Virus record (IMG/VR): IMGVR_UViG_3300036987_000548
Span: 1-40,793 of that record
Strand: one strand, 5' to 3'
Origin: a virus
Lineage: Duplodnaviria; Caudoviricetes
DNA: 40,793 bases
Position 1 is the stretch's first letter. Each line of letters starts with the position of its first letter. Shown one piece after another: positions 1-31,150 of the stretch. The translations under genes and the position numbers were made by a program. The notes under the pieces are model-generated. The model ran no database searches and was not told the origin of the DNA. It saw nothing but the letters and a program-made list of their open reading frames with translations.

Positions 1-765
1 CTAGTAATTCATGATCAACAGTTCATTTACGCTTTTTTTCTTATTTGCACCTCCTGCAGAATAAGTGGTTGCAACAACTTCAAACCTGAATCCTTTATAT
101 AATTTTCTGATCGCATCATTATCGTTAATCGACATGATGAATTTACCTTTTATATTACTTAAAACATCGCGCAGCGTCTGGAAGTCATCCCGGCTGAATA
201 TCCCCTTGCCATAATAATCCTCACAACCATAATATGGAGGATCACAATAAAAGAAGGTATCGGGCTTATCAAATCTATTAATAATAGCCTCGAATGGCCT
301 GTTTTCCACATAAACCCTGGAAAGCCGTAGGTGCACCGCCGACAACTCCTCTTCGATGCGCAGAAGATTCAGTCTTGGCCGTGACGTCGTCGCTATACTG
401 AAGGAAGGGTTCTCGATCCGCGCAGCGTAACCCAATTTTAAGAGAAAATAGAAACGGACAGCCTTTTGGATATCCGTCAGCGTTTCCGGATTTTCCAGTT
501 TGAACCGCTCGAATTCATCCCTAGCCACAAGGATCCATTTCAGATAGCGGATAAACTCTTCCAGATGCAACTTGACCACTCTGTATAAGGTGACCAGGTC
601 TGTATTGATATCGTTGATAATTTCCACTTCTGATTCTTCCTTTTTAAACAACAGCCAGGCTGCGCCAGCAAAAACTTCACAATAACAATTATGATCGGGT
701 ATCCTGGTGATAATCTTCTTTGCCAGCAACGATTTGCCGCCCATGTACGCTAAAAAACTGTTCAT
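1..765 (-). CDS. DNA adenine methyltransferase, D12 class (Dam-like)
   Basis: N-terminal YMGGKS, SAM-binding EVFAGAAW, INDIN, catalytic DPPY, C-terminal ELLIMNY; GGAGG RBS at 771-775; occupies the Mu mom position. Confidence 0.93.
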   Translation of the reverse strand: MNSFLAYMGGKSLLAKKIITRIPDHNCYCEVFAGAAWLLFKKEESEVEIINDINTDLVTLYRVVKLHLEEFIRYLKWILVARDEFERFKLENPETLTDIQKAVRFYFLLKLGYAARIENPSFSIATTSRPRLNLLRIEEELSAVHLRLSRVYVENRPFEAIINRFDKPDTFFYCDPPYYGCEDYYGKGIFSRDDFQTLRDVLSNIKGKFIMSINDNDAIRKLYKGFRFEVVATTYSAGGANKKKSVNELLIMNY

Positions 766-776
766 GCGATCCTCCG

Positions 777-805
777 TTGATTTTTGGGGATAGCCCTGCT
801 ATAAA
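777..805 (+). promoter_or_regulatory. Sigma70-type promoter, antisense to the late operon, driving the cloverleaf RNA
   Basis: TTGATT (777-782), 17-bp spacer, TATAAA (800-805), with an extended -10 TG at 797-798. Confidence 0.65.
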
Positions 806-818
806 AACACCGTTCTTC

Positions 819-911
819 GGGTGGATGGTAGCGGGTTATCCCGTCTTGCGCTGTAATCGCATGGTTTGGGGAGCGTCAACTCCCTGAAATACTGTCCGCC
901 TTTCCTTTTTT
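819..911 (+). ncRNA. tRNA-like cloverleaf small RNA with a CU-GUA-AU anticodon-like loop
   Basis: Closing stem 819-830/890-901; arms 831-835/840-844, 847-850/858-861 (7-nt loop CTGTAAT) and 865-873/880-888; several G-U pairs work only on the + strand; followed by a T-rich run. Confidence 0.6.
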
Positions 912-947: not shown

Positions 948-2282
948 TCAAATTTTTAACGGAATTAGTTTTTTACAGAGAATGTAATCCGGTTTCGGTA
1001 TTGTTGATTTAATTGGTGCCAGATCGTCTCCATTCTTTGCCATTTTCCAATCATAACCTTCGGGTAAACCGGTTGTGATTTCTTTTGTTGGCCATTGCTC
1101 TGTAATACTGTCATCTATTTTATAATCCTCGTTGATCACCTGCAGTATGGACTTACCTTTCGGTATATTTGACTTAATATCAGCCAGTTCTTTATCTGTG
1201 GGATTAATGCAAACAATTTCTTCTGTAACCGATGAAAAATCGATAAATGGATGCTGTATTGACTCAGGATCGCCGCCATTGCCGAAGCAGGGATGGTCAG
1301 AGCATATCCATGACGCTTTTATTTTCTTTGTTGTTTTATCACGCAGAAAAAACAGCCAATTAACTTCCCCAGACGACGTCACGTATCTTTGTTGTGCATA
1401 CCCCGTGCATGCGCTGGCCATTATAATATGAATATTTGTAGTGTAGGAAGTTCCAACAAACAATCCAGCAACGTAAGCAGTCAATCCAACGCCGTTGGGC
1501 GACTTGATTTGCGGGTAAAAACCATACTCACCGCCGGGAAGGGTTAAATTTGCGCCCGATGTGGAATCTGTGGACACCTCACCAGTGCTTGTTTTCAGCT
1601 TGGCCTGTGAGATTGCCGCCGCCGCCATTTTAACTTCGGTAATAACTGCATTCACAATATCGGCAGTCTGAATAGCACTGGCCACTCTAATGTTATCAAA
1701 ATAGGCGGATCCTGCCACATTCGTGTCTGTAAATCCGCCGATAACCCTGATTTTAATATACCGGGTCGTGGCAGGTGGAGTAAACTGATAAGTATATGCC
1801 GTCGGGCTTGTCGGGTTTGCTGTGGAATCATAAAGGCTTACCGGCGATCCGGCACCTAACTCCACTTTGGCTTTAGTATAATAGGATAATTGGACTTTAT
1901 TTTTCATCCCAGCGGCAGAAGCCCAATGAATGAAATTGAGAGTATAGGTCAGTAATTCCGACACCTCGATATAATCACTGAGCGCATTCCCTCCGCCGTT
2001 TAACACCCCACCTGGATGAACAAATTTCAAGCTTTTAGCTCCGTGATCCGGGGAGGTTGTCTCCAGCGCAATCGTCCCGCCGGTATAGGGTGTGCAAGCC
2101 CAGCTATCAGGCAAACCGTCACTGTCGCTGTCAATGTCAAATGAACCGTTGATAACTTGCGGCCCTTGTCCGCCGGAAGCCATTCCGTAAAGATAGTCAA
2201 GATTATCTTTAATTTTTGACATTAGATCTGCATGGATAAACTTACCCTGGGCAATCTCAGCCACCGTTAATGCTGTAAACAT
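948..2282 (-). CDS. Tail fibre / receptor-binding protein with a carbohydrate-binding-module-like domain
   Basis: Last tail gene; VINGSFDIDSDSDGLPDSW...AYFDNIRV resembles a CBM4/9 galactose-binding jelly roll. Confidence 0.7.
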   Translation of the reverse strand: MFTALTVAEIAQGKFIHADLMSKIKDNLDYLYGMASGGQGPQVINGSFDIDSDSDGLPDSWACTPYTGGTIALETTSPDHGAKSLKFVHPGGVLNGGGNALSDYIEVSELLTYTLNFIHWASAAGMKNKVQLSYYTKAKVELGAGSPVSLYDSTANPTSPTAYTYQFTPPATTRYIKIRVIGGFTDTNVAGSAYFDNIRVASAIQTADIVNAVITEVKMAAAAISQAKLKTSTGEVSTDSTSGANLTLPGGEYGFYPQIKSPNGVGLTAYVAGLFVGTSYTTNIHIIMASACTGYAQQRYVTSSGEVNWLFFLRDKTTKKIKASWICSDHPCFGNGGDPESIQHPFIDFSSVTEEIVCINPTDKELADIKSNIPKGKSILQVINEDYKIDDSITEQWPTKEITTGLPEGYDWKMAKNGDDLAPIKSTIPKPDYILCKKLIPLKI

Positions 2283-18478: not shown

Positions 18479-19627
18479 CTAAATAAGGGGTTTAGGCCTT
18501 AACCTTGCTCCTTCAACCTTGGTCCTTGATCCTTCTTTTTCCCAAATCCCCAGCCAGACAACTCCCAGCAGCGCCGTCGGCGCAATGTGAAAAAGATGCC
18601 AGCCGAAACAGGCCACGGCCACCGCCGTTATTCCAGCCGCCGCCTGCGGTGAAACCGGTTTGCTTAAAATCGTCCACCCGATAACGAGCAGAAAACCGGC
18701 AATCAGCAATAATGTCTGCACGCCCAGCTCAAAAGCAGCCTGCACGTATTCGTTGTGGGCCTGCGCGAAAACATTGCTCATTACCAGTTTATTTCCTTCG
18801 TTCGCCACTTCGCCGATCCGTTTATCTCCGGACGCCAAAAGCGGGAAAACCATCTCCCAGCTGCCGAGGCCTCGCCCCAGATATTCCGCCTGCATGGACA
18901 TTGCCGCATGTTTCCAGGCGATCCAGCGCGGGCATTGGACAATGCTGTCGATGGAGTCCACTTTCCAAAACCAGACGGACATACCCAGGCAAAGCAAGAC
19001 AGAGGCAAAGACGACCGCTTTTTTGCCCCAGTCCTGGCGAATGATAAAAATAATCCCGGCACCGGCGGCGGCAATCATTGCGGTGCTGGCTTGGGCTACG
19101 ACGATCCCGGCAAGAACAAAGGGGATAAACAGCCACCAGCCCCGGCGCAGAAATGCCGGCAGGCATAGGGCTAAAAAGACGCCTGCGGAGTCAGGATTAA
19201 ACGGGCCGGAGTATTGCGTGCCGAACCAGACGCGCAGCCAGCCGAAATACTGTGCCAGCATCCACAGAAGAAGCAGGCTGGCAGCGAGACACAGCGCATC
19301 CATCGCTCTGTCTTTGTCGATCCGGCTGATCCCTTCTGCCGCCGCGAGAAATATGGCGATCATCAGGAGTCCGATGTAGGCGTCATAGGATGGCGGCATA
19401 ATTGTTGCCGTCCTGCCCATCGCCAGCAAAAAGAAGCCGCGCCACCACCAGCTGGAGAGAAGGGCGGCAAAGGCCACCCCTCCCAGCCAGATAGATGCCA
19501 ACTGCCAGGACAATCGAAGCTCCATGCCCATTATCGGGATGATGCAAAACATCAGTCCCGGTATTGCCGCCAGCAATGTTATTTGAACAAGGGGTTGCAA
19601 CCCCTTGTTCTCTCGCCTCTCGTTCAT
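18479..19627 (-). CDS. O-antigen ligase / O-oligosaccharyltransferase family polytopic membrane protein (Wzy_C)
   Basis: About 10-12 hydrophobic segments; GPFNPD, RWIAWK, LGRGLGSW and AHNEYVQAAFELG match the WaaL/PglL periplasmic-loop signature. Confidence 0.85.
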   Translation of the reverse strand: MNERRENKGLQPLVQITLLAAIPGLMFCIIPIMGMELRLSWQLASIWLGGVAFAALLSSWWWRGFFLLAMGRTATIMPPSYDAYIGLLMIAIFLAAAEGISRIDKDRAMDALCLAASLLLLWMLAQYFGWLRVWFGTQYSGPFNPDSAGVFLALCLPAFLRRGWWLFIPFVLAGIVVAQASTAMIAAAGAGIIFIIRQDWGKKAVVFASVLLCLGMSVWFWKVDSIDSIVQCPRWIAWKHAAMSMQAEYLGRGLGSWEMVFPLLASGDKRIGEVANEGNKLVMSNVFAQAHNEYVQAAFELGVQTLLLIAGFLLVIGWTILSKPVSPQAAAGITAVAVACFGWHLFHIAPTALLGVVWLGIWEKEGSRTKVEGARLRPKPLI

Positions 19628-30478: not shown

Positions 30479-31150
30479 TTATTTTATGGCGATAAGAGCT
30501 GCGAGGATAGCCAAGCCAATGGTCAATACAATTGGCACCACCCATTTCATATTTTTAACTTCTTGGGATAGCTGCCCCACGTTGGAACTAAGAGATCGCA
30601 ATGTCGTTATCACTTCTGACAAGGCCATTCCTTCGGTTTCTGTAATAGCCTCGATCTCTTCAGGCCCTAGTTCCATCTTGCCCTGATAAGCTCCGTCATA
30701 AGGCTTTGTGGACGGCTCTTCGAGTCGATGAAACTCCACCGAAACAAGATCATCTTTGTATGGTACAGAAATAGGCCGCGGGGTTAGATTGGTAATACCA
30801 AGGATTAATTTCCCATGATACCCTGGATCTATTTGCGGCCCTGTTGTGGCGATAAGACCCTTACGAGCATATTTGGAGCGTAAGCCAAAGCGACCAGCGT
30901 ACTGAGGCCCCAGCCTTAATTCTTCCAGAACGGTAACCACTGCAAAATCTCCCGGTTGCAGGAGTATAAATCCGTTGCTTTTGATATCCACGAGTTTTTT
31001 TGAGCTTGTTGTTGCTCCTTGAGCTCCAACTCGAAAATCATACGTTGCGGCTTGCACTTGGCCCGGCTCAAAAGGGTTAATCAAAATATCCCCTTTGCGA
31101 TATGCCTCTTCAATCTGCCTGTTTGTGAGTATCATGATAGAATCCTCCAT
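30479..31150 (-). CDS. dCTP deaminase / dUTPase-fold protein with a C-terminal coiled coil and TM helix
   Basis: ATYDFRVG, RSKYARKGL, IDPGYHG, PYDGAYQG; ends WVVPIVLTIGLAILAALIAIK; true start may be the MILTN ATG behind GGAGG. Confidence 0.85.
   Translation of the reverse strand: MEDSIMILTNRQIEEAYRKGDILINPFEPGQVQAATYDFRVGAQGATTSSKKLVDIKSNGFILLQPGDFAVVTVLEELRLGPQYAGRFGLRSKYARKGLIATTGPQIDPGYHGKLILGITNLTPRPISVPYKDDLVSVEFHRLEEPSTKPYDGAYQGKMELGPEEIEAITETEGMALSEVITTLRSLSSNVGQLSQEVKNMKWVVPIVLTIGLAILAALIAIK

Follow-up and report, generated by a model that had tools for sequence, protein, structure and literature searches.

A conserved four-way-junction RNA opposite the leader of a phage DNA adenine methylase gene: a candidate cis-antisense repressor

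In many temperate phages the place of mom in phage Mu is taken by a gene for a DNA adenine methylase, and the way this gene is kept silent until late growth has been a matter of assumption. In Mu, mom is silent in the lysogen and is expressed in a late lytic burst through the Com protein, according to passages of PMC3299994, PMC3378877 and PMC6483171. Some Mu-like phages are known to have an adenine methylase instead of mom, and in the relevant passage of PMC3299994 a Com-like control was supposed after no methylase activity was found in lysogens. How, then, would such a gene be kept silent in a phage that has no Com?

This question is raised by a viral sequence of 40,793 nucleotides (IMG/VR record IMGVR_UViG_3300036987_000548), the whole of which is called the window below. 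The window is a Mu-like provirus with Mu-type transposase, Gam, GemA, gp27 and F genes, and its last gene, a predicted methylase, sits where Mu has com-mom. A search of the window in six frames detected no com-like cysteine pattern. The gap of 182 bases between the methylase gene and the upstream 444-aa gene is occupied by the element described here (Table 1). The 444-aa gene has no family match in Pfam or PHROGs. It stops 46 bases short of the junction, and a simple terminator scan listed no terminator-like site between its end and the junction; the methylase leader is therefore likely supplied by read-through from the 444-aa gene. Two short ORFs (799-879 and 876-944) overlap the element. Elsewhere in the prophage there are an O-antigen-ligase-like gene after the capsid genes (18479-19627, weak Wzy_C match) and a dCTP deaminase-like gene (30479-31150). 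The GATC count of the whole window is 247, against about 157 expected from base composition.

Table 1. Features of the methylase gene, its leader and the opposite-strand RNA, in window positions
Feature	Positions	Strand	Details and basis
D12-class, Dam-family DNA adenine methyltransferase, predicted	1..765	-	254 aa; Pfam PF02086, E 6e-32; TIGR00571 above its cut-off
Methylase RBS and start codon	763..775	-	GGAGGA (775-770) and ATG (765-763); sequence
Predicted sigma-70 promoter of the small RNA	777..805	+	-35 TTGATT 777-782; 17-base spacer; extended -10 (TG, one base 5' of TATAAA 800-805)
A', opposite-strand reading of the promoter spacer	786..803	-	predicted to pair with B', or with the RBS when freed
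Predicted small RNA, about 95-100 nt	812..911	+	5' end inferred from the promoter, 3' end from the U-rich run (901-911); fold
Four-way junction	819..901	+	P1 819-830/890-901; P2 831-844; P3 845-863; P4 865-888
B', predicted pre-emptor pairing with A'	825..842	-	window duplex -19.2 kcal/mol
P3 loop CUGUAAU, earlier read as an anticodon loop	851..857	+	hypervariable
Anti-start segment	855..863	-	complement of the message's own start region
444-aa gene, last of the virion gene block	948..2282	-	no Pfam or PHROGs family

A reading made from the sequence alone (the sequence-only reading) had claimed a near-consensus promoter, a junction and a U-rich run on the strand opposite the methylase leader. 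The promoter elements are present in the sequence, although the -10 lacks its final T. The same pattern was parsed in 101 of 105 non-redundant leaders, which were grouped into 61 clusters, or 62 with the window. The -35 is TTGATT in 29/62 clusters and the spacer measures 17 bases in 48/62. Of the 62 clusters, 24 have the last T of the -10 and 38, the window included, lack it. A simple consensus scan for promoters and terminators listed neither at the element, and the promoter was missed because the scan requires that final T. The U-rich run is also where it was claimed, directly after the junction, and at least five T are found within 10 bases 3' of the closing stem in 51/62 clusters. The distance between the -35 and the methylase RBS had been given as 2 bp; the two are indeed close, but the actual gap is a single base (RBS 770-775, -35 from 777). 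Autoregulation through a Dam site was considered and rejected: GATC occurs between the -10 and the start in just 15/62 clusters.

The claimed four-way junction with a 12-bp closing stem and three arms was found as well. In the window the closing stem P1 has 12 pairs, four of which are G-U, and 10 pairs are conserved in the family. Folding of the + strand gives the junction from the likely start at about 812 (z -4.3, 0/200 shuffles), whereas in the fold of the whole stretch 777-911 the promoter spacer is paired to the 5' arm. Covariation in homologous upstream regions was examined in 91 distinct copies (91/94 non-redundant). In these copies 95.9% of pair cells are kept, compared with 42-55% in slid controls, and two-sided changes are seen at 17/30 pairs; none of 500 shuffles scored as high. 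RNAalifold predicted the same four helices with 26 pairs, and with P1 enforced all clusters (62/62) fold with three arms. Sequence conservation in P1 and P2 is 0.95-0.97, values which are inflated in that the sequence was partly fixed by the search patterns; related copies of the element are also not independent of each other. G-U cells far outnumber A-C cells (531 vs 30 in the 91 copies), and the fold therefore belongs to the + strand, as the G-U pairs of the single copy had suggested. In four DNA sequencing runs, one of which is possibly the window's own source, relatives share a core at 820-903. The conserved + strand RNA structure is real.

The middle arm of the junction does carry the loop CUGUAAU. 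This loop had been interpreted as a Tyr (GUA) anticodon loop, making the RNA a tRNA mimic or a decoy for anticodon nucleases. Across the family it is the most variable part of the element, with the lowest mean majority fraction (0.43). The exact loop is found in 2/91 copies and the triplet GUA in 4/42 seven-base loops, which contain 26 different triplets. When the 62 clusters are folded individually, the loop length ranges from 3 to 8 bases. A Tyr anticodon is thus not a feature of the element. Neither ARAGORN nor Rfam reported a tRNA in the window, CCA follows the closing stem in 0/91 copies and the word TTCRA is found in the last arm of 2/91. In the window itself, the 3' side of the P3 loop is where the copy of the methylase start region begins. 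What would speak for mimicry is the cloverleaf shape together with a U at loop position 2 and a purine at position 6, which are present in 28/42 seven-base loops by alignment columns (in individual folds of seven-base loops, U at 2 in 10/12 and A at 6 in 9/12). However, U-turn loops are also a mark of antisense recognition loops (in a passage of PMC4485353), and the pattern is equally expected from an anticodon loop and from an antisense U-turn loop. The tRNA-Tyr mimic or anticodon-nuclease decoy is already largely refuted and hardly credible. A chance anticodon-like loop in a single copy does not amount to tRNA mimicry.

The distribution of the U-turn motif YUNR points to another role for the loop. 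YUNR was detected in the P3 loop of the RNA in 18/62 clusters against 8.5 expected (the window's own loop is not YUNR), and in the P4' loop of the message in 22/62 against 9.9 expected. The P3' loop of the message shows no enrichment (6 vs 6.6 expected). The P3 loop is likely a recognition (kissing) loop, as far as the predicted folds can indicate.

On the methylase strand of the leader, the anti-start segment comes first and the start region last, with B' and then A' between them. Window positions 856-863 have the same letters as message positions 770-763. In most relatives the anti-start segment is located in P4 and covers the RBS. The RNA therefore contains a direct copy of the RBS or start region of the gene it faces, and it could be a decoy which shows this copy and titrates a translation-controlling protein; the conservation of P1 and P2, partly set by the search patterns, would also suit such a protein. 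Most of these bases are paired, in P3 or in P4, and are not displayed, the fold-back of the message explains the copy equally well, and no candidate protein was identified. A decoy of this kind is considered very unlikely.

Predicted pairing energies of the leader segments were compared between cognate and permuted combinations in the 62 clusters. All three proposed helices pair better in their own combination, with 0/20000 permutations as good in each case: anti-start:start (-20.3 vs -16.0 kcal/mol), B':A' (-18.0 vs -16.7 kcal/mol) and A':start (-12.4 vs -11.1 kcal/mol). The control B':start showed no difference between cognate and permuted. Because relatives share segments, a test on disjoint nearest pairs was added. 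It supported anti-start:start (27 vs 10) and B':A' (25 vs 6); A':start was not significant (24 vs 18, p 0.44), and the control was again balanced (16 vs 15). A held-out set was prepared from 97 metagenome leaders, of which 35 were new, being less than 90% alike to the earlier ones (one was dropped as cut). In this set anti-start:start and A':start were again at 0/20000, B':A' was weakly cognate (717/20000) and the control was null.

The strand on which these helices form was compared too. A':start pairs better on the message strand (47 vs 10 clusters). For the other two, the raw energy is lower on the G-rich + strand (anti-start:start 45 vs 13, B':A' 35 vs 23 clusters), and after shuffling for composition they favour the message strand just slightly. 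By these sequence comparisons, the leader holds three putative competing helices, two of which change in step between nearest relatives. Attenuation at a U run past the start codon was also considered and rejected; the run lies five bases beyond the long-range helix and encodes conserved residues.

The fold-back of the anti-start segment onto the start needs no RNA in trans, and the promoter lies next to the RBS. Control might consequently come from collision or occlusion between convergent promoters, or from leader self-masking alone, with the RNA as a stable by-product or a protein-binding molecule whose pairing is not needed. The -35 one base from the RBS would fit this, and Mu has a competing promoter, momP2 (passage of PMC3378877). 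Such a reading is improbable: collision leaves unexplained the conserved + strand junction with its G-U pairs, the U-turn enrichment in the facing loops and the B':A' helix.

The accessibility of the ribosome site was predicted for three states of the leader: nascent, covered by the RNA, and relaxed to equilibrium. These states are folding predictions, and the nascent state was imposed on the fold and not simulated. Opening the ribosome footprint is predicted to cost 4.8 kcal/mol for the nascent leader, rising to 8.4 under cover of the RNA and to 10.1 at equilibrium (62 clusters). The covered state is more closed than the nascent one in 53/62 clusters, and the reverse holds in 3. If A' is shuffled the switch is lost (16 vs 19) and the covered state drops from 8.4 to 6.2. 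For the window the three values are 1.5, 4.9 and 7.6, and for the held-out set 4.9, 7.7 and 9.4, with 27 vs 1 of 35 leaders more closed when covered. A modest barrier separates the open state from the fold-back, with a median of 8.3 kcal/mol (range 1.9-22.3; window 8.0).

A comparison of the covered with the relaxed message gives the opposite sign. In the equilibrium model the opening energy of the SD falls from 7.1 to 5.5 when the RNA covers its stretch, and the SD becomes looser in 62/101 leaders and tighter in 24/101. The footprint is likewise looser in 37 and tighter in 20 of 62 clusters, and in the held-out set looser in 20 and tighter in 13 of 35. The covered message is looser than the relaxed one because of the anti-start fold-back. 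As the equilibrium test favours loosening, the sign of the control rests on the assumed nascent state.

These numbers allow the RNA to be read as an activator that works by antisense and takes the role of Com: the leader would mask itself, like the translation-inhibition structure of mom, and the RNA, by covering the anti-start segment, would free the start. The anti-start segment does lie inside the RNA-covered stretch and forms the helix with the clearest matching changes, occlusion relative to the relaxed message is reduced in most leaders (and in the window from 7.6 to 4.9 for the footprint), and the window has no com gene. On the other hand, A' would behave as a second lock which acts only when the RNA is bound, as the effect of shuffling it suggests, and the covered state is far more closed than the nascent one. 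A second sequence form of the element, described below, is found in 10 loci ahead of com itself and so is not simply an alternative to Com. Finally, a promoter of the sigma-70 type would probably be active in the lysogen, which is the wrong time for an activator. An activating role is unlikely, with perhaps one chance in several.

The explanation given slightly better than an even chance, based on the modelled folds, is a cis-antisense repressor of the pT181/pSK41 type which keeps the methylase untranslated in a phage with no Com gene. Antisense control of the methylase had been proposed by the sequence-only reading as well, and the proposal gains support from the leader segments that change in step and from the predicted open-to-closed switch of the RBS. 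A transcript of about 95 nt, started at a promoter of its own on the strand facing the methylase leader, would hold the Dam-type methylase untranslated. Transcription of the message would pass through P4' first, then P3', B' and A', and reach the start last. Its P4' and P3' hairpins, mirror images of those in the RNA, would hide the anti-start segment, and B' would capture A', so that the RBS stays open for a while. Binding of the small RNA would probably begin at the variable loops. Once bound, the RNA would cover B', and the freed A' would fold onto the RBS and close it. A leader that stays unbound would later relax into the long fold-back, in which the start is buried too.

The probable purpose of this repressor would be to mop up leaky methylase message in the lysogen. 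Strong late transcription would outrun the RNA, and methylation would happen only late in lytic growth. The resulting timing would be that which Mu gives to mom through the Com protein, absent here. Several results stand against the repressor: the loosening relative to the relaxed message, the modest barrier, the lack of significant matching changes in A':start among nearest relatives, the weak B':A' signal in the held-out leaders, the lower raw energy of two helices on the + strand, and a -10 without its last T in most clusters. If the repressor reading is right, the element offers a concrete mechanism, down to individual bases, for phages without Com, and plasmid-style antisense switching, as predicted here, is applied to a phage anti-restriction gene.

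The element is common at related loci. Among 53 loci with a full-length methylase relative, the element lies upstream in 46 (one weakly), a different form in 3 and neither in 4. Searches with its own sequence showed it facing a D12 methylase head-on in 99/108 viral and genome loci, and in 97 of the 114 metagenome loci with enough flank (of 120); both sets are redundant. Close copies at 33 loci come from genomes that carry the labels Syntrophales, other Deltaproteobacteria or Nitrospirae, and all five host genomes searched have one or two element matches each. Among distant methylase loci, the best 80 of 531 gave 15 strong model matches and 1 weak one.

Some copies face other genes. In L126 (1276-2424) the cassette faces a DAM-like-phage1 + GNAT gene; by eye, L417 begins like L126 and L099 looks like a remnant. 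The cassette of L121 is opposite a small cysteine-rich gene, after which comes an N6/N4 methylase. The late-gene regions of these four loci do not look Mu-like. In L378 the methylase is replaced: the complete cassette, promoter and RBS included, is followed there by an ORF of six codons and a small gene of membrane type.

A second sequence form occupies the same place in 44/69 loci (L286-L354, by eye), including the 10 ahead of a com-like gene. Its upstream stretch pairs better with its own start than with permuted ones (-17.1 vs -15.4, 0/20000; 37 clusters, 47 loci), and nearest pairs point the same way (14 vs 5, p 0.06). The same upstream-stretch:start test was null in 15 clusters without a visible element. 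The second form is also present in named cultured phages, such as phiE125 and KS9, where no RNA is annotated. The two forms are alike in their place and in the match to the start region. L322 and L326 have a third sequence variant ahead of D12 methylases, the former with a weak model score (E 0.017).

This spread bears on a wider proposal, in which an RNA-only Com substitute unlocks a self-masked message and belongs to a portable cassette across temperate phages of many bacterial groups. Its truth is doubtful. If it were true, the cassette would precede Dam-like, Dam-GNAT and N6/N4 modification genes, and the drifting loops would work as a phage-specific key and lock.

A few copies are unusual in structure. 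The contig of L013 contains a second, partial copy (L222, 1071-1153) with the 3' half of the RNA, 115 bases downstream of the first. Foreign sequence interrupts the middle arm of L086, whose contig also has an intact copy, L087; the middle arm of L422 is cut in the same way. L418 is a rearranged copy, and L148 is a copy without a methylase, near a tRNA-like gene. The hairpin right after the -10 is often tipped by a palindrome of 4-8 bases whose sequence is phage-specific (L039, L044, L045 and L286-L353; also L048, L051, L052, L134, L140 and L347); the window has no clear one. Such a tip might allow two RNAs to pair with each other. CRISPR arrays were found in eight metagenome loci (L360 and L414; L381, L389, L403, L419, L472 and L476) in two array contexts, and all eight contain a spacer from the conserved 5' arm of the RNA gene. 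A spacer against this arm could match many related phages.

Database searches did not assign the element to a described family. Rfam gave nothing at gathering score in the window, nor in the leaders of 20 related loci, where two tRNA genes were found elsewhere. At E values up to 10 the only match around the element is a chance frameshift-site match. None of the models suggested earlier (C4, D12-methyl, tRNA) matched: at E up to 10 the C4 covariance model (RF01695) has no hit, and neither does D12-methyl (RF02950) in the window's own record and 5 related records. The latter motif was of interest in that its name points to the same class of methylase. BLAST of positions 600-960 against named phages gave no match, and no description of this RNA was found in the literature searched, a partial sample with few subscription journals.

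SymR is encoded antisense to the 5' end of a gene under tight control and covers the RBS directly. The predicted RNA described here has a similar cis-antisense location, but does not cover the RBS directly. The SymR model (RF01809) has no match at E up to 10 in the window's genome. Sub-threshold scores were obtained in 2/20 loci scanned, where the last hairpin of the second form reaches 31 and 25 bits (cut-off 61). With the ctRNA_pGA1 model, one locus of the second form reaches 34 bits, below the cut-off of 45.

The targets of C4 are short repeats within the transcript of its own strand. The likeness to the phage RNAs C4 and CI that had been claimed earlier is true of the overall shape, a small multi-arm phage RNA behind a sigma-70-type promoter. 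It does not extend to the C4 model or to the target, which for the RNA here lies on the opposite strand and is fully complementary.

One published motif may be this element or a part of it. DNAVirus_549, as listed in table rows of PMC10690425, has 85 nt and 9 sequences, 8 of which are from groundwater, with a deltaproteobacterial host. It is listed there as palindromic and lies at most 25 bases from a Dam gene in 4 cases; those rows give no mechanism. The comparison is by description, and length, habitat, host group and neighbouring gene all fit.

The element resembles Mu com-mom in its place at the genome end, in the kind of gene it faces (DNA modification) and in a leader whose predicted fold conceals the start. 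Mu, however, has the com zinc-finger gene upstream, where the window has no com-like pattern, and the control element here is an RNA of the opposite strand. The com-mom passages retrieved from PMC3299994 and PMC3378877 name no antisense RNA.

The closest likeness is to counter-transcribed plasmid RNAs (ctRNAs), a term also applied to the repABC ctRNA (passage of PMC3155836). In pT181 a pre-emptor keeps the RBS-containing stem from forming until the RNA binds, and in pSK41 a stem induced by RNAI hides the RBS (passages of PMC5703833). These ctRNAs, as described there, and the RNA of the window are both opposite-strand RNAs, of 80-90 nt in the plasmids, that pair, or here are predicted to pair, with a leader upstream of the RBS and not with the RBS itself. 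Sequence and conservation give the RNA here the predicted promoter of its own, the U-rich end and the place opposite the leader that characterize the type. Competing pre-emptor and anti-RBS segments, with the pre-emptor covered by the RNA, are reproduced in silico, with anti-RBS:RBS not significant between nearest relatives. The differences are also clear. The plasmid RNAs consist of two hairpins and a tail, against a closed four-way junction here; the leader contains a further and longer helix for self-masking, unlike those of pT181 and pSK41; and the window's form has no Rfam ctRNA match. While ctRNAs target a plasmid replication initiator, this element faces a D12/Dam methylase and is regarded as ctRNA-like but not filed as a ctRNA. 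What the folding models describe is counter-transcribed antisense control, in a new form, applied to phage DNA-modification genes.
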